From positions 679,554 to 743,553 of the forward strand of contig JBLYPX010000001.1 in the NCBI GenBank assembly GCA_048538235.1: 64,000 nucleotides of DNA, written 5' to 3'. The first letter of the stretch is position 1. Each line of letters opens with the position of its first letter. The position numbers were made by a program, and so were the translations under genes. The stretch comes from Candidatus Komeilibacteria bacterium. Lineage in GTDB: Bacteria; Patescibacteriota; Patescibacteriia; UBA1558. Below are positions 604-64,000 of this stretch, in pieces. The notes beneath the pieces were generated by a model that worked only from the letters and a program-made list of their open reading frames with translations, had not been told where the DNA came from and searched no databases.

Positions 604-608
604 ATATT

Positions 609-23639: not shown

Positions 23640-26600
23640 CTTCTTGCTCGCTTGTATAATTAGAAACTATTTGTTCTATCTCATCGCCAGAAAGACCCTC
23701 TTCCTCTAAAATCACTTTCATATCTACATCCCCTCCACCGCTTGTATTAATATTACTAATCCTCTGATTAACATTAGCTATTTTATCTTGCATTTCATTG
23801 CTAAACGCTGCTTGACTAGCTCCCATCTTTTTAACTTGGGAAGATTGCTGTTCAAACCATTTCTTCATAGCCAAGAACTGTGCCATAGATAATGGTTTAC
23901 TTAAGAATGAACCACTACTTGTTTTGGGTATATTAATACCTCCCTTATTCGAGCTTTGCTTTGCTTTGCCAGCGTTAAGCATTCCTGGTGGTATATTGCT
24001 TAAAAATTGATCCATCTGTCCAGATATAACATTCATAGCCTCCTCGTCAGTACTGTTTGATGTATTATCTGTTTGTGCTAACAATTTTCTCAACTCTTCC
24101 AAAAACTTTTTATTATCTGGCTCGTTCTTTTCTTCTTCAGGTAAATTTATTTCTATTTCTTTTTCTAGAGCTTGTAAACTATTTTGTATCTGCTCTTTTG
24201 TACTATTCCTATCTGCTATCACTTTAGACAAATCACTAACCCTATCCTTAACTGAACTTTGAGTATCTCTGGCTGCTTGAGTGCTTCTAGTTGCTTCAGA
24301 GCTAGCAACAGACTCCTTCTCTGAATCTCTTGATGATGTTTGCTTGTCTTGGCCAGCACTTTCTGCCTTAGAAGTTGAAACTGTTTCTACAGATGAAGAT
24401 GATTCTCCTTGTACAGAACTTTGAGTATCTCTGGCTGCTTGAGTGCTTCTAGTTGCTTCAGAGCTAGCAACAGACTCCTTCTCTGAATCCCTTGAAGATG
24501 TTTGCTTGTCTTGGCCAGCACTTTCTGCCTTAGAAGTTGAAACTGTTTCTACAGATGAAGATGATTCTCCTTGTACAGAACTTTGAGTATCTCTGGCTTT
24601 TTCAGCACTGCTCATTGATTCTGAACTAGCCGTTGATCTATCTGAATCTCTTGATGATGTTTCTTTATTAGAACCAGCTTTCTCAGTATTTGTTGTTGAT
24701 CTGGACACCTCGTTTGCTCTAGCCCTTGCCTCTTCTGCTTTGGTTTTTTGCTTGCTAGCTAAAGATTCTAAACTCTTTATTTCTTTTTCATGTGATGTTT
24801 TATATTTCTGATTTTCTGTAGAAATCCTAGAAGCTTCTTTTCGTAAAGCATTTGCCTTCTTAGTAGCTTCATTATATCTATACATAGCTCCTTCTGGATT
24901 TACATAGTTTGGATCTTCATATTCCTTTTTAGCCTGGGCAGCATCTTTTTCATACGATTCCGCTCTACCAGTCAAGTCTTTAACCTTGCTATTATTATCA
25001 TTATAGCTCTTTGCAAATAAAGCTTTTGTAGCGTTTATTACATCTTGCGTTTTATAATAATCATCTTCTTTGGCTACAGCTTTATTCTCTTCAGACTGTC
25101 GCTTAATTTCTTCTTTATTCATAGCTTTGTTTACAACACTACTTTGGTAAACATCTAGAGCATCTTCATCTCTATCTGCATCATACCCCTGACCACCATT
25201 AACAATCATAAATTCTTCTTTTTGCTCATTGCTCATACTAGACCAATCATTTAAAGCTTGTTCCCTTAATCTTTCTTCCGTCTTCTGACGCTCTTGTTCT
25301 GAGTTAGCAGCTCTTATATTCTCTTTCCGCTCTTTTTTCATTGCCTTACGTTCTTTTCTTGATTCAAAGAAACTCTTCCCCTTTTCTACGCTTACACCAC
25401 CCTCACTGACTGTCATATCTTTTGCATTAATAATCCTATCTACAAAGGGTTGAGGAAGTTTAGGTTTAGATTTATCTATAACACCGTTCTTTCCAACATT
25501 GGCAATAGCGTCTGCCAAATATTCTTTTCTAATATCACCCTCAGTCATGTTTGGTTGATTTCTGTCTTCTCTAATATATTGACGGGCACTTTCTTTTTCA
25601 GCAACGGTCATACTATTCCACACATCTTCTTGAATAGAGCCATCCGAATCGACACCTTCAATGGTACTATGAGCTTTCTCATGACGAATTAACTGTTTGG
25701 CGTCTTTTCCTTTTCTTGATTTATTAACCAAAACCAAACCATCTGATTTTATTCTTTCTTCATCATTTAAATTGTTTAACAATTGATCAACACCACTAAC
25801 TCTTTCACCTGATTCAGTCTCAATTCCATGCAAGGTATCATTCTTTACTTGTTGTAAGTCTGCGTCTTTGCTTGGTTTTACGCCAAAATATTCTAAAGCT
25901 GTTCTGATATCTTCATCCTCCTCTGCTGATTCAAGCTCACTTTGATAAGCTTGCACCATTTCTTTCATAGCACTAGCTGCTTTAATAGCTTCTTCACCGT
26001 TAACAAACATACCAGCCTTTCTTTTCTGACCGGTTAAACCACCTTCTACTCTTTCATTCAGTTCATTGAAATCTACTGCTGTCATATTACCACTTCTAGC
26101 AAGCGATCCCATTGTAATACCTCCTTGAGTTGATTTACTTATTTTTGAATATTCTGAATATTGATCCTGATTTAAATATTCACTACTCTTTTCTTCCTCA
26201 CTTAAAGATTTATATTTGTCTGAGTTATAGAAACGCTCCCCTAAGACACTAGCATTATTTGCAACAAACTCATCCTTATTTACTTCTCTGGTTTCATCAC
26301 CCTTCTTAAGAACAACATTACTGTTTTCATTTCTACTAGTAGCTTCTTGATCAACCTGCCAATCTTTACCTTCTTCACTCATATCTGCTCTAACCATGTC
26401 TGTTGGCATAAGATTACTAATTTCATTTTCTACAGCTAAACCTGTATTTAAAATCTGATCGTCTGAAACTTGAGAATCTACCATATAATCTTTAGTGGAT
26501 TTCTTTACCTCTACATCACTAATCTTTTTAGGTTCTCCTTGAACACTTATACTTTCATTGGATAAATTTTGATCATAATATTTAGAGGCCTCGTTGCTTA

Positions 26601-28722
26601 CCTTTTCATCACTTAAATGTTTTAAGGCTTTGTACAAAGCGGCTCTTCTAGTCTCTGCCTTCTTCCTACCATCTGTACCAGGGTTTTGAGAATCTACTTT
26701 TTCATTAACTTGTTTAACTAATTTATCTACCTTATCATAAGGCATACTCTTAAACATTTCTTTAACAGCCTTACTCTTTATATCTCCCAAATTATCTTCA
26801 ACATCTCCAGCTTGAAATCTCTCTGGCTCATCTGCAAACACCCTACCCTTACGCTCAGCTAATCTCTTTTCTTTTATTTCTTTTTCAGCAGATTTATACA
26901 CCCTCTTAAGTGGATTAATAGAAGAAACTTCCTTCTTCTTATATTTTTCTTCTGCTCTAGTTGTTGCTTCGGACTTTTCTTTATTAATATATGCTTCTTT
27001 AAGCTTTGCACTACTTAAAGATTGATCGCTGTATAGATCTTCTCCCTCTTCAATATCATATTTAGTGCGCAATTCATTCTCAGCATTCGTTATAGCTCTA
27101 GCTTTATATGCATCTCTTGCCTCGTCTACAGTATTTACATCAAACTCTGTTATTAGTTCCTGCTTACGAGCATCATCAAAACCGTTCCATTCTGTACGTG
27201 CCTTATTCTTTGCCTGCTCAGTAACACTATCGTGTTCCTCTCTCATAAAAGACTCTCTAATGTCACCAGCTGCAACCTTACCAGAACCATCTCTAGCGGT
27301 ACCACCTTTATTCCATAACTTATTCGCACCCGCAGCATCTGCGTTAATAGCTTTAGAAATAGCTTCCCTTTTCGGAATCTCTGCTCTAGCAGCTAAAGCT
27401 GCATTAATATTATCTCCACCACCAAAAACTTTCTTTCTGATATTATCTGCTCTTTTATCTCTTGCTTTCTCTCTTCCTTTTAACTTATCTTCTGACCTAG
27501 CTGCCGCTAAATGTAATAATGACCCCTCTCTTGCTCCACCTTCTGTAGCGCCAACTCTTTTAGCATCCCACCTTAAAAGCGCTCCGCCCGTACCACCAGC
27601 CAACGCTTTTCCACCCGCTTTTAAACCTCTACCACCTGCCTTCATGCCAGACTTAATATATCCACCACCCTTCTTTATTCCTTTGTCAAAAACCTTGCCC
27701 ATTAGACCACCAGATTTACCTCCCATTTTTTGAGCCATCTGCATACCAACAACCAAAAGCATAATACCTAATAGGTAGTTAAGTAAAAATGGCGCTGAGG
27801 CTAATTGCCCACCAATAATACTATCGGGATTAACAGAACTTTCTTCAGCTGTAAAACGTCCACCAGTTTGTGACACAACAGACAATGTTAACCATAGGAA
27901 AAAAGCAATAGCCGGACCAACAATTAACTGCTCGCTAAACTGAGACCACCATTGTTTTGCCTGACCACCTAAACTTCCTGGTAAAGCTGAAGCTAAATAT
28001 GCAAAAGGAGACATTACAACTAATATCCATAGAATAACAATACGATAAGCAAGCATAGCAACAACAGCAACCAAAACCACTAACAATATTAACGAAATAA
28101 GTAGACCAAAAATCATGCCAAGGATAAGGGCAAAATTATCTTGCTCTATTTCTCCAGAGGCATCCATTGAACTTGCTAAGGATTTTAACTTATTCAAACC
28201 AAAAGCCTCTGTAAAACCAACAATAATAGAATCTCTAAAAGCAGCTACAAAAGTTAACATGATAACTTGAGAAACATCTATTAAAAATCCTGCTATTGTC
28301 TTTGAAAAGTTAATCAATATAGCCATAATAATAACTTTCCTCAAAAAGTTCTTATAACTATATGATTCAACACCTAAAACTGTACCAACAGAGATGATAA
28401 GTAATATGACTATAAAGAACATATTACATATATCTCTAACAAGCACCCAACCAGTTGTTACAGCAGCCGCTGAAGTAAATTCATTAAACTGAGCAATATT
28501 AATGAGAACGGATAACACTAAGGTTATAAGTGAGCCTATCAAACTCATCAATAAATCCAGTATCCAGGCAAATACATTAGTCATTGCATCAGCTATACCA
28601 GCTGCATGACTAATAAAAGGTACTAAAATAATTAAACTTAAAACGAAAACAACCAAGGCTAACCGTTTAGTCACCTTGGTGTTTGCAAACTTCTTTATTC
28701 TAAGAATTAGATTTTTAAGCAT
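23629..28722 (-). CDS. giant membrane protein: N-terminal polytopic TrbL/VirB6-like domain plus ~1350-aa K/E/S-rich repetitive extension
   Basis: 1697 aa. It has a signal-like N-terminus, six or more TM helices in the first ~340 aa, a Gly/Lys linker, a long charged coiled-coil-like region, an S/T/E-rich segment with a 54-aa tandem repeat, and an acidic C-terminus. The TrbL/VirB6 assignment is by topology and architecture only. Confidence 0.55.
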   Translation of the reverse strand: MLKNLILRIKKFANTKVTKRLALVVFVLSLIILVPFISHAAGIADAMTNVFAWILDLLMSLIGSLITLVLSVLINIAQFNEFTSAAAVTTGWVLVRDICNMFFIVILLIISVGTVLGVESYSYKNFLRKVIIMAILINFSKTIAGFLIDVSQVIMLTFVAAFRDSIIVGFTEAFGLNKLKSLASSMDASGEIEQDNFALILGMIFGLLISLILLVVLVAVVAMLAYRIVILWILVVMSPFAYLASALPGSLGGQAKQWWSQFSEQLIVGPAIAFFLWLTLSVVSQTGGRFTAEESSVNPDSIIGGQLASAPFLLNYLLGIMLLVVGMQMAQKMGGKSGGLMGKVFDKGIKKGGGYIKSGMKAGGRGLKAGGKALAGGTGGALLRWDAKRVGATEGGAREGSLLHLAAARSEDKLKGREKARDKRADNIRKKVFGGGDNINAALAARAEIPKREAISKAINADAAGANKLWNKGGTARDGSGKVAAGDIRESFMREEHDSVTEQAKNKARTEWNGFDDARKQELITEFDVNTVDEARDAYKARAITNAENELRTKYDIEEGEDLYSDQSLSSAKLKEAYINKEKSEATTRAEEKYKKKEVSSINPLKRVYKSAEKEIKEKRLAERKGRVFADEPERFQAGDVEDNLGDIKSKAVKEMFKSMPYDKVDKLVKQVNEKVDSQNPGTDGRKKAETRRAALYKALKHLSDEKVSNEASKYYDQNLSNESISVQGEPKKISDVEVKKSTKDYMVDSQVSDDQILNTGLAVENEISNLMPTDMVRADMSEEGKDWQVDQEATSRNENSNVVLKKGDETREVNKDEFVANNASVLGERFYNSDKYKSLSEEEKSSEYLNQDQYSEYSKISKSTQGGITMGSLARSGNMTAVDFNELNERVEGGLTGQKRKAGMFVNGEEAIKAASAMKEMVQAYQSELESAEEDEDIRTALEYFGVKPSKDADLQQVKNDTLHGIETESGERVSGVDQLLNNLNDEERIKSDGLVLVNKSRKGKDAKQLIRHEKAHSTIEGVDSDGSIQEDVWNSMTVAEKESARQYIREDRNQPNMTEGDIRKEYLADAIANVGKNGVIDKSKPKLPQPFVDRIINAKDMTVSEGGVSVEKGKSFFESRKERKAMKKERKENIRAANSEQERQKTEERLREQALNDWSSMSNEQKEEFMIVNGGQGYDADRDEDALDVYQSSVVNKAMNKEEIKRQSEENKAVAKEDDYYKTQDVINATKALFAKSYNDNNSKVKDLTGRAESYEKDAAQAKKEYEDPNYVNPEGAMYRYNEATKKANALRKEASRISTENQKYKTSHEKEIKSLESLASKQKTKAEEARARANEVSRSTTNTEKAGSNKETSSRDSDRSTASSESMSSAEKARDTQSSVQGESSSSVETVSTSKAESAGQDKQTSSRDSEKESVASSEATRSTQAARDTQSSVQGESSSSVETVSTSKAESAGQDKQTSSRDSEKESVASSEATRSTQAARDTQSSVKDRVSDLSKVIADRNSTKEQIQNSLQALEKEIEINLPEEEKNEPDNKKFLEELRKLLAQTDNTSNSTDEEAMNVISGQMDQFLSNIPPGMLNAGKAKQSSNKGGINIPKTSSGSFLSKPLSMAQFLAMKKWFEQQSSQVKKMGASQAAFSNEMQDKIANVNQRISNINTSGGGDVDMKVILEEEGLSGDEIEQIVSNYTSEQEDEE
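24257..24615. repeat. 162-bp direct tandem repeat (~2.2 copies) inside the giant ORF
   Basis: CTTTGAGTATCTCTGGCTGCTTGAGTGCTTCTAGTTGCTTCAGAGCTAGCAACAGACTCC... recurs at ~24257, ~24419 and (partially) ~24581. This encodes the 54-aa repeat ARDTQSSVQGESSSSVETVSTSKAESAGQDKQTSSRDSEKESVASSEATRSTQA. Confidence 0.85.
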
Positions 28723-31633: not shown

Positions 31634-34600
31634 TTAAGGAATTAATATAATTTCGCCATCATATCCTTCCCACCCAATAATTGCCTCAAAAATACCATCT
31701 CCATTTGTATCAACACCACAGTTACTACCACTTCCTTTACTACAAAAACCCCAATTATCCTCTACGTACACCTTTGGTGTATACACACAAGCTGGTTTAC
31801 CATCGACTTCCGTAGGCGGATTGCTACAAATATATGTGTGATTAAAACTAAAATAACCTATACCATTCTCGTAGTCATCCACACAATAATTAAGATCATT
31901 ACCGATGTTTTTTGGAACACACAAATTATTAGTTCCTGTACACTCAGCATTACTTCTACAACCCTGTCTTAACTTAAGGTTCTTTATTTGATAGCTTTGA
32001 TCAGAAGATAAACCTGGCGTATGATTCAACCTGCCAACCCCCAAATCCCTCAAACAATTACCACTTGTATTATTATCATTATAACAACTCGTTACCATTT
32101 CCTCTGGTATAGTTACTGTGCTACTGTAATGACACCAACCATCTTCTAAAGTTTCTGTACCATCTGGACAACCGGAATTAGTATTTGGTATGTAACTCAC
32201 ACCATTCACAACATTACTCAAAGAAGTTGTATCTGCGAATGGTAAATAAGGATAGCTTTCAGTCTGGCCGGGTAACAACAAGTTAGATTGAGAACAATAT
32301 CCGGTTGAATAACACCAATAATTAGCCATTGATCTTGTCGCAGTAATATTGTTACTTATTTTAAAATCATATTCTAGGGTTACAACATCTCCGGCTGTAA
32401 ATTTTTCATCTGCTATCTCTGTGTTTCTATATATTACCCAATTGTCATCCCTGCTCGATGTTTGTGTAATAGTAGTTATACCAGTTGACGTATTTTCCGT
32501 CGCAGTACCACCCCAAGATGTGGTTGGATTAAAATCATTCCAATAATTATCATCTGAAATTGAGTTGGTACAACTGTTAACACATATATTTTTGTGATTT
32601 TTCAAGCTAACAGTTTCATCATTCTCTCCAAAAATCGACGAACCATCATCCCAATCCACCATCAATCTACTTAATGGTAATTGATCACCAGTCTCATTAT
32701 ATGCATAAAACTTAACTGTTGCGTTATAGATATTCGATTCCATAAGAATGTTACCACTATTTTTATCGTTAATAGTTATCCCTGTATTTCCCTCCGAAAC
32801 TACACCGTTTGAATCTAATTCAACTTGACGTAGATCTACATTATCGCCAGAACTAATAGTAGAAATCTCACTAAATGATGCTTGTTCATATCTGTCTTGA
32901 CCATAATCCCAAGAAAATTTTTCTATAAGCCTTGCAAACAAATTCTTTAACCATTGCAATCCATTGTTATCACCTCCATTAAAATTTGAATTTATTGCCG
33001 AAACCAAATCTTGATCTTCACTATCAACTCCATAATAATGACCATCTATATTTGAAGACCCGTCTAACATACCTATAACACCTGATTGAGAAACTGAATA
33101 TGGTGTACCGGCAACTACCCCACTCAAACTAGTATTCTCATTTTCGACCTGTATAAACTGGTTATAATTATTCAAATTAAAATCTACGTTACTCATTCCA
33201 TACCAGCTATAATATTGGTCTATGTCTAAAGATATTTCATTGTCATCAACATCTTTAAATGTGGCCATACCATTTATAAAATTATTAAACTTAGGCGAGC
33301 CTACCCGAATAAAATCAGTACATATTTCTGTTGCAGAAGTGTCTGGTTGTAGATAGTTTACCGTAACGTTGTATATATAACCCTGAACTATATTATAATA
33401 ACCATCCATATACTCAAGCGGATTAATAAAAGAAACTTCATAACGAGACACGTTATCTACTCCATCAAAATCACCATCTTGAAAACCAACAATAAAAAAT
33501 GCATACATAGCATACTCATTCCAGTTATTGCAATTCGCATAACCACCAGCAAATTCATTAGCAGACAAACATCCATCCTCTCCATCTAAAAACGGGAAGA
33601 CACCCCCATTATTTCTTGTAAAATTATGCCAAATAAAAGATTCATCATCAAATGTTATGCCCGGGTTGCCGCCAACACTATCTATCGTGTAAAATGCCTT
33701 AACCCATATCTTTGAATCCTCTGGACCGCAAAAATCTTCATTAATATTACCACCAACGCAACTATATTCATCTTCACTCGTTAGCGTAATAGTGCTTGAA
33801 CCATTTATATTAAGTAACATACACTCATCTGGATCGTTACCATAAATATCATCTTGACACTTTAAAACACCATCCGTTCCTATACCATTAACAAAATAAT
33901 CGTCATGCCCTGGTATCTGCCAACCAGCCGCAACATTGTTGAATTCAATACTCTCAATGACTGATTCTTCTTTACCAAAACTATCTTCATCCCATATTTC
34001 AACATCTTGATTACTAACACCTACTGAAACATTAGGATACTGCTGACCACCATTCATGCATAAAGCTATTGTAGAATTGTCTTGAAAACCAGCATATGGT
34101 GAAACAATCTCAGGAGTTCTTGCGTAATAATCTTCCATCCAATAATAACCACAATGTTGCCAATCCCATACATAGCTCTCATTTTCTGGCGCCTGCTCAC
34201 CAAGATCTAACGAAACTGGAATAGACACGTCCCCTGCATAAGGATAATTACCTTCTGACTGTAAACAATAGTACATATTATCAAAATCCAAATTTAGGTC
34301 ATCAGCTATATTGACACCAGATGGGTTATATTCACCACTTAAAATATCTAATGGCATCCAAGTTAAACAAGGGTGTGTGCTGCCGGCATATCCAATTATC
34401 GTTCTTGAATAATCATATTCAAGACAGAAGCCCCAAAAACCGCGATAATTATTAACTGATTTAATTTGAGAATCGCCAATAGCAGTAAATCCATTATAAT
34501 TAGATCTATAATACCTAGTCTCACCTTGTGTGTAATTAACCTCTGTATAATCACACTCACAACCAGCGCCCTGAGAGCAGAAATTCGCTTGAGGCATCTG

Positions 34601-37600
34601 CAAAGGCTTGGTAATAATATTTCCATCATCATCAAACTCAATATTTAACCCTATTGTCGAAAAAGGAGCATCAGAATCAGGGAACAACCTACACGTTGGT
34701 TCAACAGTTATTCCATTAAAACCTACACCCGCTGTATCGTCACTTTCGTTGGACAACCTCAATACACCATCTTTATTTTTAGCCAACAAAGATTCTAAAT
34801 TAAACTTATTCAACAATGAGTAACCAGAATATTCTTGTCCTGACCAACCAGTTTCTCTGGCCGTATATACATCCTCAGTTAATATTTCATCACCTTTTTC
34901 TAACCAAGAAATACAAGTATTACCACTAGGAGATAACTCCGTACACCTGCCAAGGTCATAACAATACTCTTTCACACTTCCATCTATTTCTGTGGCATAA
35001 CTTGAAGATCTACAAGCTAGCCATTCGCTACACTCTCTATTTTTAGTTACTTTAATAACTTCATTACTATCACTTAAACAATCATCATCCTCTGGGGAGC
35101 ATCCTGTAACAACTGTTAAATTACCATTGTTTACTAAACTGTTATTATAGCTAGCATTACTGTCATATTGTCTTATTATCTCTCCATCACTATCTACATT
35201 AGATGTATCCAACATTAATACACAACCGCTTTCCCAAGAAACCTGTCCATTACAATCTGCACCATTTATACTGTTGCCGTTTATATAATAATATGACTGC
35301 GTCTCACTAATACCAACATTATCTAGATAGAATGTAGAATTGGTATCATTACCGAAAGCTATTGAACACCTTATGTTGTTATTACTTGAATCTGCTCTAA
35401 ATTTACCTGTAAAAGTTGAATATCTATCTGTTCTTGTTTGGGAACTTTTAATTAACATTTTATACACTCCACCACCCACACCTATAAATGAATCGTCATA
35501 TGATTCTATAGTAGCTCCTTCACAATATAGACCAACCGAATAACTACCAATACCCGTTGTACCAGCTAATGCATGAGCTACATTTATAAATCTTGGCAAA
35601 TTAAACGACATATCTTCTGCCTCCTCCTCACTTGGAGGTTGTTGGTCTCCACTAATAAATCTTAGATCAAACTTAACAGTATAATCTTTACCGCCATTTA
35701 TTGAGAAACTCTGTCTAAATGATTCATTACTACTTGGAGTATAATAATCTACATTTACAGCATTTGTATTATCCCTTCCTGATCCATTAAGATATGAAGT
35801 AAAGCCGTCACAGCTAGTATTATCTTCACACCAAAAATCTGGTATCTCTGGATCGTTATTTACATTTCCTAATTTCGTGTTTATTTCAAAATCTCCATTA
35901 AACAGCAAATTATCTCCTTGTGTTCCTTGAGGATCTATAAACTCTGTACAACCAACCGCAGCAGAATTACATTCTCCAGCAAACCCTATCCAATCAACAT
36001 CTCTTCTCTTATATAATTCACCGCTTTCATTACATGGTATTTTGTCTGCTTGGTTAGCATTATTAACGGATGATGTTAAATACCAACCAGTTAATTTCTG
36101 ACCATTAGACTCATAATTATCTAAGAAGGTACAAGTTCTTTCTCCTGGGTCTCTCATATACACAGTCTGTCCATCTGATTGATAAGCTTCACAATTTAAA
36201 GCATCCGTACCACAAAGCGTTAAATCATATCTTTCAGGATCATTTATTAAATATATATCTTCCCAAGAATCTATAACATTTGCATTATTATTATCAACTG
36301 CAAATTGAGGAGCACCCAAAACAGTACAACCCTTATCTCTACTACTGCAATAATATTGATTATCATCTACCAAATAAATTAATTCGTCTGCCTCTGTAGT
36401 TATATTTTGATCATCTGTATCCCAAGTCTGCGCACCAATTGCTTTAGTGTTTTTTGTATCAATAAACATTGAACAGCCAACAGATGATTCAGAGCACAAA
36501 CTATTGAAGCTGCTCAAATAATGAGTATTGCCTAATCTATCCTCATATTCATCACAACCCAAATCCTCAACAGTACATTGATCTGGTGTATTCCAAGAAT
36601 CTTTAACTAAATATAGATCTGAGTTGATTTCTTTCAAGACTATATTATCTATATAGTAATATGAATTATTTGCTGGGAAGTTCAAATTAAAACTAAGTAT
36701 ATTATTGGATGACGTGTCATCAAAATATACTGGACCTAGATTATACTGTTTCCATACACTCCTAACATCTAAACTGAAACTTGGGGCAAATAAATAATCA
36801 TTATCATTATTAAAGGATATCTGTGCTTGTGTTCTGGCTGCAGTACTAGCCTTTAACCAGAAAGATAATGTATATGATTTACCAGAACGAATACTTACAT
36901 TCTTTGAAAGAATTGTTTCACTATTAGCTTTGTATGAATGCCCACCTGTTACAACAGATTCTGAACTTAATGAGCCACCTGTCCAACCATGTGTTCCGGC
37001 CTCAAAATCATCGACAAACAATCTTCTGACATTACTACCATCACTACCCTTATATACTTTACAACCAACAGCCTCTGCTGAACACGAACCCGATTCAGAA
37101 GTTAAAACTAATGCCATATCTGCACTATCTATTGCTCTTCTTAACTGAACACAGCTATTACTTGCTTTAACAACACTGCTTTCTCTTACTAAATATTCAT
37201 CGTTATTCTCATCAACAAACCAACGACAGGCAGGATCATCTTCTTCTACACAAGTGTCTACACCATTAACTGTATCGTTACAAACATTAGTTGTTCCATT
37301 ATACATAACACTAGTACAAGGACCGTCGTTAATATCACTCTTTAATAAACTCCAAGATCTTAATTCAAAACCAGTTGTTTCAGATCCTTCCCAGGTATAA
37401 TATGTTGTAACGTCTGGGTCTGTATCTGGAACACACATTCTTAAAGAATTATAATACTCAACAGTTTCACCAGCTGTCATATTAGTAAAGGCTTCACAAC
37501 CAACCTCTTCTAAACTACAACTCTGAGCTGTGTCAGCAATGAAACTATCGTAAGTTATGATATCATCTGCGCCAAACCACCTATCTATTTCTGTATTTTC

Positions 37601-40258
37601 CTGTAAATATTGTTCATAACCACTACATTCAGATGAACAATAGTCACGACTACTCACTATTCCCGGTATTGATGGATCGCCATTAGTTGGAATGTATAAT
37701 TCACAACCAAGTTCATCTGCTTCACAACTTGGAGCATAATTATCACAAGCAGGAACCCAATTATTTTCACAATCTAAATAATCTGGAGCTTTTTTAATAT
37801 AGCTAATATTCTTAGATCCATAATTTACATAATTATTTGCCCTAGATCCAACTTCTAATTGAATATTATCAAACCACAAAGACCCTCCACTACTTGTCAA
37901 AACTCTGACTCTTGCTGAAGCAACTTTATCATTTGTAAAAAATGTACAACTACTCCTTTCCATATTTCTACTAACTGGAGTAAATTGTAAATCTACATTT
38001 TGTGGGTGTCCGCCAACACCAATAGAACAATCTCCCGCACCAATAGCAAAGGCTTGGCTATTATCACCACAATTTTTATTATTATCACATAGTTGCACTA
38101 TTACTCTAGCAGCAACCTCTTCACTGTTTGAAATTTGAGCGGCTGAAGCAGAAATAGTATATTGAGCATTTGGAGCTACTTTTACATTTGACTGAGCAAC
38201 ATTCCAGTTATAACTTTGTTTTATCTTACCATCTGAATATTCATCAGCTGTTCCCCAATTGTCTGGTTGAGCGCCGTCTGTGCTTTGACTAAAATCACCA
38301 TTATAAACCAAGTTAACACCTGGCTCTATTTTTATTAATTCTGAACAACCAGCATTCTGTCCCTCACAAGTACCGGCTTGAGCATTTAATCTTATCTGAG
38401 AATTTTCATCCCATATAGTTTCATTATCTCCATATGAAGAAACGGTTGTACTATACCAACGACAACCAACTTCATCTGCTGTACAGAAATCTAATGTATC
38501 TTTAATATAATAATCTGTTCCCTGATCGCTAGTATAAGAACGGCAAGAAGCATAAGCAGACAAACATTGCTCACCACCAAACTGCCATACATTTTTTTCA
38601 CGCGTACAATAACCCCACGCACCAGGTAAACACTCGCCATTACCATCTGTTTTTAAGCAAGTTTGAGCATCAACACAGATCTCACTTCTGTTTGTACTAC
38701 TTGGTGTTTCTAGAACAGGTCCATAACCACTAGCCCTACATTGAGCAGCTGGTGCTACTAATATCCAATCTGGGTCAATTAAACTTTCATAATCACTCCC
38801 AGAAACATTAAACTGGGCAATAACCTCACCTAGAGTTACTGGGCTATCTACTGGACTCTTTGATGCAGCTATTTCCCAACCCAAAGGTATAAATCTAGCC
38901 AGTCTCATCTTTTGTAAATTAGAATAACACAAAGCATCTTTGTGACAGTACTGTAAGTCACTATGTAGATGACTGTCTTTAGATATTAAAGGCGTATTAG
39001 CATCTATCAGTCTTAATTGAATTGCCTCTGCTACTGTAATTGGTTCATTCTTACTAAATGCAGAATAAAACTTTGGATCCATTACGCAATTATTCAAATT
39101 ACGAATATTTTCATCAGGACATATAACAAAATCATTAGCTGGATCATATTGTTCGATACTACTAGGTGAGACCGCAAACGCCTCTGAATAATATTTCTCT
39201 ATAGTTTGCGTATTTACAGGGTTTGCATATGGATTAACATTTAAATTCAAATCACTATTATCTGTACCGGGTGTTGAAGTGGCATAGGGAGTGCCAAATA
39301 AAAAATTATTAAGATTGAAATTTTTATATGTATTTATATCATACAAACCATTAATAAGATTTTCTAAAAATGTAGATGTTAGCGTGTTAGTAAATGTCGC
39401 TGCAGCACGAGCTAAAACAGGATGTTCAGAATTGGCAGCAACCTGCAATTTAAGACCTTGGAATTGTAAACCCATATTAGCCGGAGCTTGAGCAGCGCTC
39501 TGAACATCCTCAGCACCACTTTTCACCTGAGTTTTAGTAGTATTAAGCACTGGCCTATAGGTACTCTTTAAAGTTTGTATTATTTCATCCCTTTCTTGAG
39601 TTTCTTTTTTAGCTATTAACTTATCATTTAAAGATAGTTGGGCTGAAAAATCACTCTTACCTGGTCTAAATTGAATTTGTAGTCCTTCTACTAAAGCGGC
39701 CTGAGCTGCATCTCGCTCTGCTTGAGTACAACCTTCACCGAACAAACATGCCTGTTCTGCAACAAAAGACTCCCAGTTTCTGACAATGTTTGCCAAATCA
39801 CACCTAGGCTGTATTATTTGATCGTTCTTCAATAAAGACATTGTAATAGTAGCCTTTATATCTAAATCTGGATTACAAAGATCAATTCCTAGGTCTGACC
39901 ATTCATCACTTAAACCACCAATAAAATCACCAGCTGCTGCCCCTGCTGCATCTTTAAGAATGTTTTGAAAGACTCTTCCTTCAAATAACGTTCCTTGCCC
40001 CCTATCACCAGTGGCTAGTGAAACAGCTGTTTCGTAAGCAAATTTCTGCAAAAACATATCTGATGCATCTATAACCAATTGCTTAACTGTTAGTGTAACA
40101 AAATTTTTAACAACGTCTTTAATTTTCTGCCACGTAAATTCTATAACAGTGGCCGCATCAAAGGTCGGTAAAGCGTATGCTTGTTGCGGAGCTAGTGCAG
40201 CGCCAAAAATAGTAGTTAAAAAGCACACCGTTAAGATAATTGTTGTTATTTTACTCAT
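31634..40258 (-). CDS. giant (2874 aa) secreted Cys/Asn/Gly/Tyr-rich surface protein of unknown function
   Basis: It has a signal peptide (MSKITTIILTVCFLTTIFGAALAPQQAYA) and one uninterrupted 8.6 kb frame with no TM segments after the signal. It contains many Cys pairs. It is co-transcribed with the upstream 243-aa protein (6-nt gap). Confidence 0.7.
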   Translation of the reverse strand: MSKITTIILTVCFLTTIFGAALAPQQAYALPTFDAATVIEFTWQKIKDVVKNFVTLTVKQLVIDASDMFLQKFAYETAVSLATGDRGQGTLFEGRVFQNILKDAAGAAAGDFIGGLSDEWSDLGIDLCNPDLDIKATITMSLLKNDQIIQPRCDLANIVRNWESFVAEQACLFGEGCTQAERDAAQAALVEGLQIQFRPGKSDFSAQLSLNDKLIAKKETQERDEIIQTLKSTYRPVLNTTKTQVKSGAEDVQSAAQAPANMGLQFQGLKLQVAANSEHPVLARAAATFTNTLTSTFLENLINGLYDINTYKNFNLNNFLFGTPYATSTPGTDNSDLNLNVNPYANPVNTQTIEKYYSEAFAVSPSSIEQYDPANDFVICPDENIRNLNNCVMDPKFYSAFSKNEPITVAEAIQLRLIDANTPLISKDSHLHSDLQYCHKDALCYSNLQKMRLARFIPLGWEIAASKSPVDSPVTLGEVIAQFNVSGSDYESLIDPDWILVAPAAQCRASGYGPVLETPSSTNRSEICVDAQTCLKTDGNGECLPGAWGYCTREKNVWQFGGEQCLSAYASCRSYTSDQGTDYYIKDTLDFCTADEVGCRWYSTTVSSYGDNETIWDENSQIRLNAQAGTCEGQNAGCSELIKIEPGVNLVYNGDFSQSTDGAQPDNWGTADEYSDGKIKQSYNWNVAQSNVKVAPNAQYTISASAAQISNSEEVAARVIVQLCDNNKNCGDNSQAFAIGAGDCSIGVGGHPQNVDLQFTPVSRNMERSSCTFFTNDKVASARVRVLTSSGGSLWFDNIQLEVGSRANNYVNYGSKNISYIKKAPDYLDCENNWVPACDNYAPSCEADELGCELYIPTNGDPSIPGIVSSRDYCSSECSGYEQYLQENTEIDRWFGADDIITYDSFIADTAQSCSLEEVGCEAFTNMTAGETVEYYNSLRMCVPDTDPDVTTYYTWEGSETTGFELRSWSLLKSDINDGPCTSVMYNGTTNVCNDTVNGVDTCVEEDDPACRWFVDENNDEYLVRESSVVKASNSCVQLRRAIDSADMALVLTSESGSCSAEAVGCKVYKGSDGSNVRRLFVDDFEAGTHGWTGGSLSSESVVTGGHSYKANSETILSKNVSIRSGKSYTLSFWLKASTAARTQAQISFNNDNDYLFAPSFSLDVRSVWKQYNLGPVYFDDTSSNNILSFNLNFPANNSYYYIDNIVLKEINSDLYLVKDSWNTPDQCTVEDLGCDEYEDRLGNTHYLSSFNSLCSESSVGCSMFIDTKNTKAIGAQTWDTDDQNITTEADELIYLVDDNQYYCSSRDKGCTVLGAPQFAVDNNNANVIDSWEDIYLINDPERYDLTLCGTDALNCEAYQSDGQTVYMRDPGERTCTFLDNYESNGQKLTGWYLTSSVNNANQADKIPCNESGELYKRRDVDWIGFAGECNSAAVGCTEFIDPQGTQGDNLLFNGDFEINTKLGNVNNDPEIPDFWCEDNTSCDGFTSYLNGSGRDNTNAVNVDYYTPSSNESFRQSFSINGGKDYTVKFDLRFISGDQQPPSEEEAEDMSFNLPRFINVAHALAGTTGIGSYSVGLYCEGATIESYDDSFIGVGGGVYKMLIKSSQTRTDRYSTFTGKFRADSSNNNIRCSIAFGNDTNSTFYLDNVGISETQSYYYINGNSINGADCNGQVSWESGCVLMLDTSNVDSDGEIIRQYDSNASYNNSLVNNGNLTVVTGCSPEDDDCLSDSNEVIKVTKNRECSEWLACRSSSYATEIDGSVKEYCYDLGRCTELSPSGNTCISWLEKGDEILTEDVYTARETGWSGQEYSGYSLLNKFNLESLLAKNKDGVLRLSNESDDTAGVGFNGITVEPTCRLFPDSDAPFSTIGLNIEFDDDGNIITKPLQMPQANFCSQGAGCECDYTEVNYTQGETRYYRSNYNGFTAIGDSQIKSVNNYRGFWGFCLEYDYSRTIIGYAGSTHPCLTWMPLDILSGEYNPSGVNIADDLNLDFDNMYYCLQSEGNYPYAGDVSIPVSLDLGEQAPENESYVWDWQHCGYYWMEDYYARTPEIVSPYAGFQDNSTIALCMNGGQQYPNVSVGVSNQDVEIWDEDSFGKEESVIESIEFNNVAAGWQIPGHDDYFVNGIGTDGVLKCQDDIYGNDPDECMLLNINGSSTITLTSEDEYSCVGGNINEDFCGPEDSKIWVKAFYTIDSVGGNPGITFDDESFIWHNFTRNNGGVFPFLDGEDGCLSANEFAGGYANCNNWNEYAMYAFFIVGFQDGDFDGVDNVSRYEVSFINPLEYMDGYYNIVQGYIYNVTVNYLQPDTSATEICTDFIRVGSPKFNNFINGMATFKDVDDNEISLDIDQYYSWYGMSNVDFNLNNYNQFIQVENENTSLSGVVAGTPYSVSQSGVIGMLDGSSNIDGHYYGVDSEDQDLVSAINSNFNGGDNNGLQWLKNLFARLIEKFSWDYGQDRYEQASFSEISTISSGDNVDLRQVELDSNGVVSEGNTGITINDKNSGNILMESNIYNATVKFYAYNETGDQLPLSRLMVDWDDGSSIFGENDETVSLKNHKNICVNSCTNSISDDNYWNDFNPTTSWGGTATENTSTGITTITQTSSRDDNWVIYRNTEIADEKFTAGDVVTLEYDFKISNNITATRSMANYWCYSTGYCSQSNLLLPGQTESYPYLPFADTTSLSNVVNGVSYIPNTNSGCPDGTETLEDGWCHYSSTVTIPEEMVTSCYNDNNTSGNCLRDLGVGRLNHTPGLSSDQSYQIKNLKLRQGCRSNAECTGTNNLCVPKNIGNDLNYCVDDYENGIGYFSFNHTYICSNPPTEVDGKPACVYTPKVYVEDNWGFCSKGSGSNCGVDTNGDGIFEAIIGWEGYDGEIILIP

Positions 40259-59475: not shown

Positions 59476-59506
59476 AAACACCGACGAGAACGCCGGTGTT
59501 TTTCTT
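59475..59506. terminator. bidirectional rho-independent terminator
   Basis: AACACCGACG-AGAA-CGCCGGTGTT is flanked by A/T runs on both sides. It sits between convergent genes. Confidence 0.6.
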
Positions 59507-60531
59507 TATTCTTTTTCTTTAATTTTATCTAAGACTTCTTGCATAGCATCTCTAGCCCTGACTATACTCCGTTCTTCTCTTTCACTAATCTTAACCTTTG
59601 AGTTCTCTAAATATTCTGTTAGTTCTTTTACACCGGTTGAAAAAATATTAATAATCCAAGCATTGTACTTTTCTTTACCCATTGTTTTCTCAAGAGGTTT
59701 AGTCTTATCTGTTAAATCCATCATCTTTCTAAAATCTATAGGATCGCCAGTTACATCATCCCTGCCATAATCTGAAGCTTTCTCTTGCAAGAAAAATCTT
59801 GGCACGTGACCATATTCTAATCTATCTGGTATAGTAACAACTGGTTTATGTATAATAGAACTTTTTTTACCCGGATCCTCGTTAGCAGATCTTTGAATAG
59901 CAAGATGAACAATATTAGCTGGATCAGATTCTTCCTTACCAGCTAGCCTGTCTGTATCAATAACTATAAACTCATCTATCTGGTCTAAATAATCCTCCCT
60001 TGGTCTTGATTCAACAGCATTAACCCCTTCAATCCCAAGCTCTCTTATTCCTTTTACAAAAACTTTACTATCATGATCACGAGATTCAATTCCATTATTA
60101 CCTTTATCTGGACTAACAAAATTAAATTTTTCTGTTAAATGCTTTGATGTTTCTCCTCTTTTATTAACAGTTTCCTGATGCAATGAATAGAAAATCTCCT
60201 GATTAGACATTCCTTTGTTTCTTCTATTAAACTTTACATCAGCATAATCTTGAAAGGTTCGATCTATCAAAGCTAGATAATCTGCCACTGTTATTTCTAA
60301 ATCGTTATGCTCTACACTCCAAGATACTTTAATAATATCATCTGCACGCAATGGTATTCTACTATCATTAACTAAAATAGGGTGTTCACAGTTATATTTA
60401 CCTTTAATAACCCTAAACTTTTCTCCATCTGGCAATGGTAGCTCTTTTCTAATAATTTTTTTTCTTACAACTATTTTCTTTTCTTGTTTAGGCTCTTCTA
60501 AATTATCTAATTTTAATCCTTCAAATCCCAT
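59506..60531 (-). CDS. hypothetical protein translationally coupled to valS
   Basis: 341 aa and hydrophilic, with no motif I can assign. Its start lies 2-4 nt after the valS stop. Confidence 0.5.
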   Translation of the reverse strand: MGFEGLKLDNLEEPKQEKKIVVRKKIIRKELPLPDGEKFRVIKGKYNCEHPILVNDSRIPLRADDIIKVSWSVEHNDLEITVADYLALIDRTFQDYADVKFNRRNKGMSNQEIFYSLHQETVNKRGETSKHLTEKFNFVSPDKGNNGIESRDHDSKVFVKGIRELGIEGVNAVESRPREDYLDQIDEFIVIDTDRLAGKEESDPANIVHLAIQRSANEDPGKKSSIIHKPVVTIPDRLEYGHVPRFFLQEKASDYGRDDVTGDPIDFRKMMDLTDKTKPLEKTMGKEKYNAWIINIFSTGVKELTEYLENSKVKISEREERSIVRARDAMQEVLDKIKEKE

Positions 60532-60535
60532 ATTA

Positions 60536-63500
60536 TTATTTTAATTTATTTAACTTTTCTTCTGCCTCCGCTAATTTTTCCTTTTCTTTATTTACAACCT
60601 CAGCAGGAGCATTGCTTACAAAATTATCATTACCAAGTTTTTTTTGCAAGGTTTCAATATATCTTTCTAACTCTTCCCTTTGCTTTGATTGCATTTTGTT
60701 GGCCTCACTCTTATCTATGTCTAAGGCAATATCTACGCCTTTAATATGTAGCTCTAACCAACTTTTATCCTTGGTTGGGACTATCTTTACTTTTGCCAAT
60801 TTCTCAATAACACCAACATTACTACTAATAACCGTGTTTAAATCTAATTTACAATTAATAACTTTAGCTGGATCTAATTTATTCTCTCCTTTAGCATTTC
60901 TAATACCTGTGATGATATCCATTACAATGTTAAATTCTTTATTTCTATTCTTTTTTAAGAAATTAAACAAACCATGTTTATTTGCTGGCCACTGACTAAT
61001 TATTAATTGACCATTATTGAAATTACTCCAAATAGCTTCTGTTACATATGGCGCGAATGGATGCCATAGTTTTAATAGCTGTCCTAGAATATATAACAAG
61101 ATATCATCCTTATTTGTTTCAACCTTACTAATCTCAATATACCAATCTGCAAACTTTGACCAAGTAAATTCATATAATCTTTCAATGGCTGGAGAAAACT
61201 TTAATTCGTCTAAATCTTTAGTTGTACTATCAACTAATAAATCCAGTTCAGATAATATCCATTCGTCTGCAATTGTTTTTGCCTTAGATTTGCTAGTTAT
61301 AACTTTAACATCTTTAACAGAGCTTAAAATATATCTAGAAATATTCCAAAGCTTATTTACAAAGTTTCTATAACCCTCAATCTTTTCTTCATAAAGCCTC
61401 ATATCATTACCAGGTGTTGCTCCCACCATCATAGAAAGTCTTAAAGCATCAGCACCAAACTTATCTATCATTTCAATAGGATCAATACCATTGCCCAGTG
61501 ACTTACTCATCTTTCTGCCTTGCTTATCTCTAATTAAGCCATGAAGATAAACTGTTTCAAAAGGAATCTCATCAAGTAGATAAGTGGTCATAATAATCAT
61601 ACGAGCTACCCAAAAGAAAAGAATATCATAACCTGTTTCCATAACAGAGGTTGGATGAAAATTCTTTAAGTCTGGGCTATTCTTTACCCATTCTTCCCAA
61701 GAGCTATATTTAGAAAAATCTTGATCAAGCAATGTTGAGAATGTCCAAAGTGCAGATGAAAACCAAGTATCTAGTGTATCTTCATCTTGCTCCCATTCTT
61801 TAAGATTATAGCTACCGTCTGGTAAAGAGTAACGAACAAAGTTACCGAAAAGTGGTTTGTAATCACTTAACTCTTTTGCATCTCCACCTTTAATTAACAT
61901 TTCTAAAGATCTAATAAATGCATTATGCGTAATAACTAATATTTTCTGTCCTGCATATTTTTCATCTACTTTCTTTAGAAATTCTTCTCCTCTTTTCATC
62001 ATTGACTCATAGGTTTCTTCTTCGTCTCCTGGAATGTCGTAATTTATTTTATCCTTATAATAATCTGGATTATCTTTTTTAATATCTTTAACAAGTTTTC
62101 CTTCAAATGAACCATAATTACGCTCAACTACTAATTCATCTACTTCATAATCTACTCCCAACTCTTCACTAATAACCTCAGCCGTTTGTCTAGAGCGCAT
62201 TAGAGGGGAACAAATAATCTTTGCTATTTTTTCTTCTTTAAGTTGAGCTACCTTATCTTTTATCTCTCCCACTTTTTTTTCATCAAGTGGTGTGTCTGTC
62301 TGCCCCTGAACGCGTCCTTCTTGATTCCAATCTGTAAGACCGTGCCTGCTAATAATTAATTCTGTAATATACCTTGGTACTAATTTTTCGTCTCCTTTAT
62401 ACCAAACTGGAATTCTATGCCCCCACCAAATCTGACGAGAAATACACCAATCATGTAAATTATTCATCCAATTAAAATATACCTTTTCAAACTTATCTGG
62501 CATTATATCTATATCTCCAGATTTTACAGCATTGATAGATAATTCTTTCAAACTCTTACCTTTACTTGGTATTTTTTTATTAACATCTACAAACCATTGT
62601 TCTGATGGCAAAGGCTCTATTGGAGTATTACATCTATAGCAAACAGATAAATTATGTTCATAATCTTCGTCAATGTGATCTATAAGTCCCATCTTCTCCA
62701 TATCCTTTAAAATGGCCTCTCTAGCATCAGTAGTTGTCATTCCTGCATATTTACCACAATTAGCCATCATCTTACCGTCTTCATCTATTATTTGACGCAT
62801 AGGTATATTATTCTTAAGCGCCATCTCATTGTCTATAAAACTATGAGCTGGGGTAACTTTAACAGCACCTGAACCAAATTCTGGATCAACTGCTTTATCT
62901 GTAATAACTCTAACTTTAAATTCTCCTAAAACACCTGGTATCATATAATCTTTACCAACCATATCTTTATACCGGTCGTCATCTGGATTAACAGCTACAG
63001 CCGTGTCACCAAGTTTTGTTTCTGGGCGAGTAGTGGCCAGTACAAAAGGACCATATTTTATCCAATACAGTTTTGTTTTCTTATTCTCATACTCTACTTC
63101 ATCATCAGCTAGGGTTGAATGACAACGAGGACACCAATTAACAATTCTATGACCACGGTAAATTAAACCATCATCATACATTTTCTTAAAAGCCATATTA
63201 ACAGCTTTAGACAAACCATCTGAAAATGTATAACGTTCTCTACTCCAATCTACAGAAGAACCCATTCTCCTTATCTGATTACGAATAGTATCTTGTGATT
63301 CACCAACATAGGTTTTAACTCTATCTAAAAACTTTTCTCTGCCTAAATCTTCTTTAGTCTTATTATCTTCCTGAGCAATAATCTTTTCTACTTTATTCTG
63401 AGTGGCAATAGCTGCATGATCTGTACCTGGTACCCATAGAGTGTTTTCACCAAGCATTCTATGATAACGAACCATAGTATCTTGGTAGGCGAGCATAGCT

Positions 63501-63670
63501 GCGTGTCCTAAATGTAAAACACCAGTTGCATTTGGTGGTGGCAGAGCTACTGAAAAATGTTTTTTCTTTGTTTTAAGATTATCTGGATTAAATAATCCAG
63601 AATTCTCCCACTGACTATATATATCTTGCTCAAATTCTTGAGCATTATAGTTTTTAGCTATTTCTTTCAT
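60536..63670 (-). CDS. valS: valyl-tRNA synthetase carrying an inserted histidine-phosphatase (PGAM-like) domain
   Basis: 1044 aa with HIGH (HLGHAAM), the ValRS signature TRPETKLGDTAVAV, WCISRQIWWGHRIP, DTLDTWFSSALW, KMSKS (GRKMSKSLGN) and a C-terminal coiled coil. Residues ~433-628 form an extra domain carrying RHGLTDWN, SPLMRSRQTAEV, ERNYGSFEG and VITHNAFIRSL. Confidence 0.9.
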   Translation of the reverse strand: MKEIAKNYNAQEFEQDIYSQWENSGLFNPDNLKTKKKHFSVALPPPNATGVLHLGHAAMLAYQDTMVRYHRMLGENTLWVPGTDHAAIATQNKVEKIIAQEDNKTKEDLGREKFLDRVKTYVGESQDTIRNQIRRMGSSVDWSRERYTFSDGLSKAVNMAFKKMYDDGLIYRGHRIVNWCPRCHSTLADDEVEYENKKTKLYWIKYGPFVLATTRPETKLGDTAVAVNPDDDRYKDMVGKDYMIPGVLGEFKVRVITDKAVDPEFGSGAVKVTPAHSFIDNEMALKNNIPMRQIIDEDGKMMANCGKYAGMTTTDAREAILKDMEKMGLIDHIDEDYEHNLSVCYRCNTPIEPLPSEQWFVDVNKKIPSKGKSLKELSINAVKSGDIDIMPDKFEKVYFNWMNNLHDWCISRQIWWGHRIPVWYKGDEKLVPRYITELIISRHGLTDWNQEGRVQGQTDTPLDEKKVGEIKDKVAQLKEEKIAKIICSPLMRSRQTAEVISEELGVDYEVDELVVERNYGSFEGKLVKDIKKDNPDYYKDKINYDIPGDEEETYESMMKRGEEFLKKVDEKYAGQKILVITHNAFIRSLEMLIKGGDAKELSDYKPLFGNFVRYSLPDGSYNLKEWEQDEDTLDTWFSSALWTFSTLLDQDFSKYSSWEEWVKNSPDLKNFHPTSVMETGYDILFFWVARMIIMTTYLLDEIPFETVYLHGLIRDKQGRKMSKSLGNGIDPIEMIDKFGADALRLSMMVGATPGNDMRLYEEKIEGYRNFVNKLWNISRYILSSVKDVKVITSKSKAKTIADEWILSELDLLVDSTTKDLDELKFSPAIERLYEFTWSKFADWYIEISKVETNKDDILLYILGQLLKLWHPFAPYVTEAIWSNFNNGQLIISQWPANKHGLFNFLKKNRNKEFNIVMDIITGIRNAKGENKLDPAKVINCKLDLNTVISSNVGVIEKLAKVKIVPTKDKSWLELHIKGVDIALDIDKSEANKMQSKQREELERYIETLQKKLGNDNFVSNAPAEVVNKEKEKLAEAEEKLNKLK

Positions 63671-63900
63671 AAATATATTATACCTTTAATAAATAAAAAA
63701 ATCCCTACATATATAAGGACTCTTATTTAAGAGCGGTACCACCTTATTTCCCTATTTATTAACAGGACTCTTATTAACAGCTATAACAGGCTTACCTGGT
63801 CAGTTCTACTCGTCTAAATAACTTTCTTCTGACAGCTTGCCGGGGGACATTAAATCCCGACTTTTAGCGCTTTTATGTAATAATAAGTTAACATATATAT
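63671..63900 (-). promoter_or_regulatory. T-box-like leader (tRNA-sensing riboswitch) upstream of valS
   Basis: On the minus strand, GGGAAATAAGGTGGTACCGCTCTT (plus ~63731..63753) closely matches the T-box consensus AAUUAGGGUGGUACCGCG. An antiterminator-style arrangement is visible. UAGGGA...[bulge AAUAAGGUGGUACC]...GCUCUU-AAAU-AAGAGU...UCCUUA competes with the terminator UCCUUA-UAUAUG-UAGGGA plus U7 (plus ~63694..63719), about 25 nt before the valS SD/ATG. Confidence 0.55.
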
Positions 63901-63906
63901 TAAGAT

Positions 63907-63935
63907 TTGACAAATTTTAACATGCAGCGTAATAT
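63907..63935 (+). promoter_or_regulatory. sigma70 promoter pointing out of the window (divergent from valS)
   Basis: TTGACA, a 17-nt spacer, then TAATAT. A possible SD GGAGGG plus ATG at ~63974 begins a plus-strand ORF that runs off the window. Confidence 0.35.
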
Positions 63936-64000
63936 GGCTAACACAGTAGCGAACCATGAACCATGGAGGGACAATGTTGTTGATACGGAAGTTTCAACTC

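Follow-up and report, generated by a model that had tools for sequence, protein, structure and literature searches.

A putative tRNA-Val-specific T-box leader with a short Stem I and a predicted terminator upstream of valS in Patescibacteria

The 64,000 nucleotides of contig JBLYPX010000001.1 from Candidatus Komeilibacteria bacterium analyzed here (positions 679,554 to 743,553 of the forward strand; hereafter the window) contain on their minus strand the gene valS (60536..63670, 1044 aa in the list of open reading frames (ORFs), ATG at 63668-70), which is preceded on this strand by about 265 nt of non-coding sequence. The leader RNA situated there (63691..63876), delimited by the start of the Rfam model (AUAAAAGCG) and the end of a terminator U tract, is probably a T-box riboswitch specific for tRNA-Val with valS as the regulated gene, in which a decoding half of the class III type is combined with a canonical sensing half and with control by a terminator. 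Together with related leaders it could represent, as we tentatively propose, a natural T-box family that lacks contact to the tRNA elbow and works co-transcriptionally via an intrinsic terminator, and which would be the first described in Patescibacteria (Candidate Phyla Radiation, CPR). All coordinates within the leader refer to the minus strand.

Architecture of the leader

That a T-box leader of valS lies in this region, as claimed in the original prediction, was borne out by the match to the Rfam T-box family RF00230 and by all listed sequence features on the minus strand. The match covers 63712..63876 and the full model (positions 1-219) with 55.2 bits, corresponding to E values of 2.1e-11 for a stretch of 501 nt and 2.7e-9 for both strands of the entire window. 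It was the sole Rfam match with E <= 0.01 in the 64 kb, where neither rRNA nor any other Rfam family besides the T-box was detected, and the motif set together with this match is far beyond chance. Stem II, IIA, Stem III and the antiterminator were aligned to the model with high posterior probability, and 86 consensus positions of the distal Stem I are represented by 25 nt.

At the 5' end a short Stem I (63834..63871; hairpin -7.9 kcal/mol) consists of a lower helix of 3 bp (AGC 63869-71 / GCU 63834-36), an asymmetric internal loop (GCUAAAA / AA) at the K-turn position, an upper helix (GUCGGG 63856-61 / CCCGGC 63839-44) and an apical loop of 11 nt (AUUUAAUGUCC, 63845-55), on the 3' side of which the valine codon GUC (63846..63848) is found within UAAUGUC. 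Where classes I and II carry a long Stem I, there is thus a 6-bp hairpin with an 11-nt loop. Stem II (63799..63833) is built of an outer helix of 5 bp (GUCAG 63829-33 / CUGAC 63799-803), the two strands of an S-turn (GAA/AGUA; AAGAAA 63823-28 and GAGUAGAA 63804-11) and a variable inner hairpin (63812-22). Directly 3' of it follows the Stem IIA/B pseudoknot (63779..63798), with IIA formed by CAGG 63795-98 and CCUG 63787-90 (CAGG-UAAG-CCUG), the F-box CCUGUUA at 63784-90, and IIB joining the loop AGC 63790-92 to GCU 63779-81, two bases past the F-box. A further structured leader had been expected upstream of the T-box sequence, and it extends for about 130 nt more, to 63876.

The sensing half is canonical, comprising Stem III with flanking purines, the helices A1 and A2, and a T-box bulge. 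Stem III (63749..63772; UCCU 63764-67 / GGGA 63749-52) is flanked by the purine run AAGAG (63768-72) on its 5' side and by AA on its 3' side; an RRRNG-Stem III-AA motif has been described (PMC7778990). The T-box sequence GGGAAAUAAGGUGGUACCGCUCUU (63729..63752) includes the 7-nt bulge UGGUACC (63735..63741, 65-71 nt upstream of the ATG), a UGGNACC bulge between A1 and A2 as is expected of a T-box. Its UGGU is complementary to ACCA and hence able to pair with the 3' end of a tRNA, as foreseen. The antiterminator AUAAGG-UGGUACC-GCUCUU...AAGAGU-CCUUAU (63713..63747; -8.8 kcal/mol) is composed of A1 (AUAAGG 63742-47 / CCUUAU 63713-18), which directly flanks the bulge, and of A2 (GCUCUU 63729-34 / AAGAGU 63719-24), a hairpin closed by AAAU at 63719..63734, where the inner hairpin GCUCUU-AAAU-AAGAGU had been correctly recognized.

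The predicted intrinsic terminator (63691..63718) is formed by CCUUAU (63713-18), a loop AUAU and GUAGGG (63703-08), followed by an A and then by UUUUUUUAUUU (U7AU3; U tract 63691-701); the terminator previously read as UCCUUA...UAGGGA with U7 is located at 63691..63719. The six bases CCUUAU serve A1 as 3' strand and the terminator as 5' arm, so that antiterminator and terminator are mutually exclusive structures, in agreement with the original prediction. Downstream, a Shine-Dalgarno (SD)-like AAAGG (63683-87) lies outside the hairpin.

With regard to decoding, however, the original prediction had to be revised. It described a canonical class I T-box of the Firmicutes type, with a GUU specifier in an internal loop (GAAAGUUAUU) and an outer helix UAGGGA/UCCUUA. 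GUU (63820-22) is a valine codon followed by A, GUC stands at that place in the homologous leader L091, and UAGGGA is complementary to UCCUUA. However, the GAA of this stretch belongs to the S-turn of Stem II as its 5' strand and is invariant in the ileS class III aptamers too, the next bases form the first arm of the variable hairpin (63812..63822) and are different in every other homologue (AUCUAAAG, AUUCGG, ACCAAAU), and Rfam assigns the stretch to Stem II, not to Stem I. A helix UAGGGA/UCCUUA would moreover produce a bulge of 14 nt instead of the invariant 7 nt; UAGGGA instead forms the 3' arm of Stem III by pairing with UCCU, with 7/7 pairs covarying, and the real A1 is AUAAGG/CCUUAU. With the distal Stem I, which holds the tRNA-elbow platform, missing, a class I leader of this kind is scarcely credible.

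Homologous leaders, covariation and specifier

The 80 best genomic relatives of this ValS, the closest being 72% identical, derive nearly all from assemblies labelled Patescibacteria, Parcubacteria or other CPR, some of them bearing evidently automatic 'Gammaproteobacteria' labels. As the closest ValS relatives are CPR-labelled, the sequence places the T-box in a CPR bacterium and not in a Firmicute, and its presence here is no pointer to Firmicutes, at which the original prediction had hinted. The GC content of the window is 32-37%.

A motif (regex) search of 80 related valS loci yielded six leaders and one that is cut at its 5' end. AAGGUGGUACC was found 50-90 nt 5' of valS in L004, L005, L024, L025, L060 (the 5'-cut leader) and L070, and four of these six loci gave full-length sub-threshold matches to RF00230 (32-52 bits) with Stem I again collapsed. 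A metagenome scan with the pattern ATGTC...GTAGA...AAGGTGGTACC returned 30 loci, of which 13 were chance matches, mostly in coding sequence, two were other T-boxes, the ordinary one of an ileS (L106) and the canonical one of a valS (L090), and several were duplicates; after chance matches and duplicates had been dropped, 11 further distinct leaders were retained. The family thus comprises 17 distinct full-length leaders including that of the window, six from valS loci of genome assemblies and the rest from the metagenome scan, all in Patescibacteria-like contigs. In 14 of the 17, valS was confirmed downstream; the contigs of L093 and L097 end before valS, and L083 was not counted as a member. 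A covariance model (R1) built from seven leaders matches the window at 63698..63866 with 161 bits and recovers the 10 other leaders at 67-100 bits (E <= 1e-16), and neither the window nor about 73 other valS loci gave any further match. With about 7 of 80 related valS loci carrying it, the element is patchily distributed, and most valS genes of Patescibacteria are without it.

The helices are supported by compensatory changes throughout. In the model-based alignment of the 17 leaders, standard pairs make up 93.7% of the 539 cells, and double changes are seen at 28 of the 35 pairs, counts that are somewhat inflated through the fitting of the alignment to the structure. None of 500 shuffles reached any of five measures, and pairing fell to 26-58% when partners were slid by 1-3 columns. 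Free of this bias are the anchor-based parse of Stem I and the result of RNAalifold on a plain MAFFT alignment of seven leaders, which recovered Stem II, IIA, Stem III, A1 and A2 with 19/29 pairs compensatory. Per column, the leaders are otherwise just 46% identical. The upper helix of Stem I is 5-9 bp long and varied in sequence (CUUAAG/CUUAAG, GCGCGG/CCGCGC, CUUUGAG/CUCAAAG and others), with 6/6 of the window's pairs covarying across the 17 homologues; its apical loop measures 8-11 nt, and U(A/U)AUGUC within it is invariant in 17/17, as is AAGGUGGUACC. Double changes occur in 5/5 pairs of the outer helix of Stem II, IIA pairs are kept in 95.6% of cells, and IIB of at least 3 bp is in register in 14/17 leaders and in both actinobacterial references, its third pair alternating between A-U and C-G. 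In A2 7/7 pairs covary, and Stem III, which is weak in the window and absent from about 5-7 homologues, covaries in 7/7 pairs where present.

The closest comparison is offered by L091, from a close relative with a ValS 87% identical, whose leader differs from that of the window mainly by structure-preserving changes: G-C to A-U in Stem II, U-A to A-U in A2, and A-U to G-C in IIA. Its terminator (100%), U tract and SD region are identical to those of the window. Single-sequence folding against shuffles indicated no extra stability (z = -0.89), a score that is uninformative for an AT-rich switch RNA.

By its conservation and the valS context, GUC at 63846-48 is assigned as the specifier, a codon that matches the amino acid of the regulated gene. 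On the contig of L087 a tRNA-Val is encoded whose anticodon GAC is complementary to GUC and whose A73 with an encoded CCA is complementary to UGGU. Pairing might be extended to A37 and U38 of tRNA-Val(GAC) by the invariant AU that lies 5' of GUC. A different tRNA would be read if one of the other triplets of UAAUGUC, namely AAU (Asn), AUG (Met) or UGU (Cys), served as the codon, and these are conserved just as GUC is. Elongator tRNA-Met, too, has A73. Such a reading is nevertheless highly improbable: valS lies downstream wherever this could be read, the codon is situated on the 3' side of the loop like AUC in the N. farcinica loop CCAUCA, and the canonical valS T-box L090 likewise has GUC as specifier. 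A C in third place is favoured among specifiers (PMC7583486), and GUC conforms to this.

Relation to known T-box classes and predicted switching

Class III ileS leaders are said to have been treated by Sherwood et al. in 2015 for Nocardia farcinica and Mycobacterium tuberculosis/smegmatis. T-boxes fall into four classes, and in class III, e.g., in the ileS leader of N. farcinica, Stem I is short and without an elbow-binding platform, the specifier lies in a penta- or hexanucleotide apical loop, Stem II is required, and regulation is 'mostly' translational (PMC10482949); PMC7583486 and PMC10482949 cite the structures 6UFM and 6UFG for such leaders. A long Stem I is generally required in transcriptional T-boxes, and the K-turn is reported to be indispensable to tRNA binding by those with a short Stem I (PMC7583486). 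When the ileS aptamers N. farcinica T99 and M. tuberculosis T87 (PMC10651847 supplement) were aligned with five family members, they were collinear from the 3' arm of Stem I onward, with AAGAA, GUAGA, the pseudoknot C, G and the G.CC.GU.A..GC positions invariant and IIB in the same register. On account of this collinearity, the decoding half is assigned by sequence comparison to the class III module. Shared with class III are the short Stem I without an interdigitated T-loop platform, the codon on the 3' side of the apical loop, the lower helix and internal loop at the K-turn position, the 5-bp base of Stem II followed by AAGAA ... AGUAGAA (S-turn, purine string), and the pseudoknot right after Stem II, its F-box being CCUGUUA here and CCGUCA in the ileS aptamers. 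In contrast to class III, the specificity is for Val (GUC, valS) instead of Ile (AUC, ileS), the host belongs to Patescibacteria instead of Actinobacteria, the penta- or hexaloop is replaced by a loop of 8-11 nt in which UAAU is conserved 5' of the codon, a conserved purine is lacking 3' of the codon, and in the window a hairpin with a U-run overlapping A1 takes the place of an SD sequestrator. Class I (Bacillus subtilis tyrS type, RF00230) has in common with the present leader the S-turn of Stem II, the IIA/B pseudoknot, Stem III with purines, A1/A2 with the UGGNACC bulge, the competition of terminator and antiterminator and, in the valS example L090, the GUC specifier; it differs in its Stem I, as the specifier internal loop, a separate S-turn, the AG bulge and the distal tRNA-elbow platform are lacking here.

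If these parts act together as in other T-boxes, tRNA-Val(GAC) would pair with GUC during transcription, and the purine string of Stem II would clamp the duplex. The ACCA-3' end of an uncharged tRNA would pair with UGGU and stabilise A1 (AUAAGG/CCUUAU); with six bases tied up in A1, the terminator stem CCUUAU/GUAGGG before U7 would be blocked and RNA polymerase would enter valS. With a charged tRNA, A1 would remain unstabilised, the terminator would form and transcription would stop. This working presumes that the leader binds tRNA and senses its charge, and that the RNA polymerase of Patescibacteria terminates at the hairpin with U7. Termination is the natural reading, since the SD-like site and the AUG (16 and 32 nt past the hairpin, respectively) lie beyond hairpin and U7. 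Across the family, a hairpin directly followed by a U-run is present in 16 of the 17 full-length leaders, the exception being L081, where hairpin and U run follow about 110 nt further downstream; L060, the leader cut at its 5' end, showed no U run.

The terminator hairpin alone reaches -4.5 to -5.3 kcal/mol, and the unconstrained minimum of -21.8 kcal/mol contains it, compared with -14.7 for the best fold in which the antiterminator is enforced. AAGAGUCCU is present twice in 63719..63773, once 5' of Stem III and once in the A2 3' strand together with the 5' arm of the terminator, and GCUCUU can pair with either copy, the upstream choice giving the lowest-energy off-state of -21.8. Part of the gap between the two folds thus arises from pairing specific to the window, and therefore it was not relied on. 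Pairing of UAAGAG (5' of Stem III) with CUCUUA (A2 5' strand), impossible in L091, was treated as incidental.

The switch may act on the initiation of translation, alone or together with termination, if an alternative structure hides the ribosome binding site (RBS). The terminal hairpin of L070 and L081 has AAGGA or GGGAGA in its 3' arm, 7-11 nt before the AUG, and the minimum-energy fold of the window contains a pairing between GGUA at the SD-like site and UACC of the T-box bulge. However, the latter contact amounts to 4-5 bp, the 3' arm of the window hairpin ends 32 nt before the AUG, AAAGG at 63683-87 lies outside the hairpin after the U7AU3 run, and the U-run found in 16/17 leaders would not be needed for sequestration. 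Such a translational switch is therefore unlikely; in the window, sequestration of the RBS is unlikely and control is most likely transcriptional. Family members with an SD-like arm in the hairpin, like L070 and L081, may act on translation, too.

Besides the inflated covariation counts, several findings weigh against our reading of the leader as a tRNA-Val-specific T-box with class III-type decoding and terminator control. The score of 55.2 bits misses the RF00230 gathering score of 93, and a default Rfam scan at gathering thresholds returned nothing in the whole window. The original prediction had named the lack of an Infernal hit above this threshold as a ground for its refutation, and formally this applies. 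However, this failure is misleading here because the low score stems from the deletion of the distal Stem I, and the missed threshold is a weak negative as L090, a canonical valS T-box with a long Stem I from another metagenome, also stays under 93 with 89.2 bits. The apical loop of the window has 11 nt compared with 5-6 nt in described class III members, and the base 3' of the codon is C in the window and A, G or C across the family, in contrast to the purine conserved in known T-boxes. At the place where the tandem G-A of a K-turn is expected, A-A is present in the window and L091, with a 7-nt/2-nt loop; in a comparison by eye with N. farcinica (GGC-GAC-GA...GA-GCC), L024 and L081 were found to keep GA/GA at this position. 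A tRNA-Val was obtained from L087 only, and as no tRNA gene was found in the 64-kb window, the tRNA of the leader's own genome was not seen. A promoter scan gave no convincing sigma-70 promoter on the strand of the leader; both the window and L091 keep a TAACTT 7-8 nt upstream of where the leader begins, and reading it as a -10 box is no more than a guess.

The expression platform also raises objections. The terminator stem is weak (6-7 bp with two G-U pairs, about -5 compared with -8.8 kcal/mol for the antiterminator alone), and a consensus terminator scan did not report the window terminator because its stem has too few G-C pairs. The overlap of A1 and terminator amounts to at least 4 nt in eight leaders, the window among them, but to just 1-3 nt in eight of the 17 (L004, L005, L024, L025, L087, L095, L097, L108), so that the family as a whole is not accounted for by simple strand competition. 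In these small-overlap leaders the terminator lies directly 3' of A1 and the shared nucleotides are at the base of its stem, where blocking the closure of the last base pairs beside the U tract might suffice. The terminator of L004 is a hairpin of roughly 25 bp with about -30 kcal/mol.

A score under the Rfam threshold, a weak terminator and a non-canonical K-turn could be the marks of a decaying, non-functional remnant or of a chance resemblance, with valS expressed constitutively; the occurrence in only 7/80 related valS loci and a T-box separated from valS by a reverse-strand gene in L103 point in the same direction. This is very improbable in view of the window-wide E of 2.7e-9, the retention of all helices by compensatory changes at 46% per-column identity and the mainly structure-preserving changes in L091.

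In the literature, a long Stem I with elbow contact is associated with kinetically driven transcriptional switches, and a short one with translational switches, essentially those of actinobacterial ileS (PMC7583486, PMC10482949); the short-Stem-I model of TBDB was applied only to Actinobacteria and truncated class I matches. The wording 'mostly translational' leaves room for known transcriptional exceptions in class III. Full-text literature searches, with Sherwood 2015 and Suddala & Zhang 2019 outside their coverage, revealed no link of T-boxes to Patescibacteria/CPR, and no valS T-box with an apical-loop specifier was found described in the literature search. If the proposed family exists as outlined, it would contradict the published rationale that transcriptional T-boxes need a long Stem I for fast capture of tRNA, and half of its members (1-3 nt overlap) would need a mode of blocking other than full strand competition. 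Provided that the inferred working is true, the kinetic argument could be tested directly on a natural RNA of about 185 nt. The family also suggests an RNA switch as the means by which some Patescibacteria, at least, monitor the charging of tRNA, and the compact leader is a candidate native regulatory part for CPR bacteria. Scoring 32-55 bits against a gathering score of 93, leaders of this kind are missed by standard annotation pipelines, and a dedicated model such as R1 would recover them.

Genomic setting

In two members of the family a gene of purine salvage is found next to the T-box: L082 has a 329-aa gene of the adenosine deaminase family (minus strand 5296..6282; A_deaminase, E 5e-48) between T-box and valS, and in L093 an adenosine deaminase family gene likewise comes next after the T-box. 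A purine-salvage gene under the control of valine tRNA would be an odd combination. In L103 (region 300..955), 711 nt lie between the terminator of the T-box and the start codon of valS, a gap that holds an ORF of 140 aa on the opposite strand belonging to the PD-(D/E)XK nuclease family (PDDEXK_3), and the T-box may be uncoupled from valS in this genome.

According to Pfam, ValS of the window consists of tRNA-synt_1, Anticodon_1 and Val_tRNA-synt_C with an inserted His_Phos_1. This histidine-phosphatase insert (E 1e-38; 61793..62359, minus strand; ValS residues 438-626) is situated between the catalytic core and the anticodon-binding domain, and the same insertion was observed in valS of L091/L102, L096, L004, L005, L085, L001 and L002. 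Five of those also have the T-box leader, and the insert is absent from other valS that bear a T-box.

The plus strand carries, 58 nt upstream of the leader, the start (63934) of a divergent ORF (MANTVANHEPWRDNVV...) that runs past the end of the window (63934..64000). The sole sigma-70-like match of the region (TTGACA-17-TAATAT, 63907..63935, plus strand) overlaps its ATG. Downstream, an ORF of 341 aa without Pfam match (59506..60531, minus strand) begins 4 nt after the stop of valS and is therefore probably co-transcribed with it under the same T-box. L001 has a counterpart with 53% identity downstream of its valS. Two ORFs elsewhere in the window are very large, with 2874 aa (31634..40258) and 1697 aa (23629..28722), both on the minus strand.

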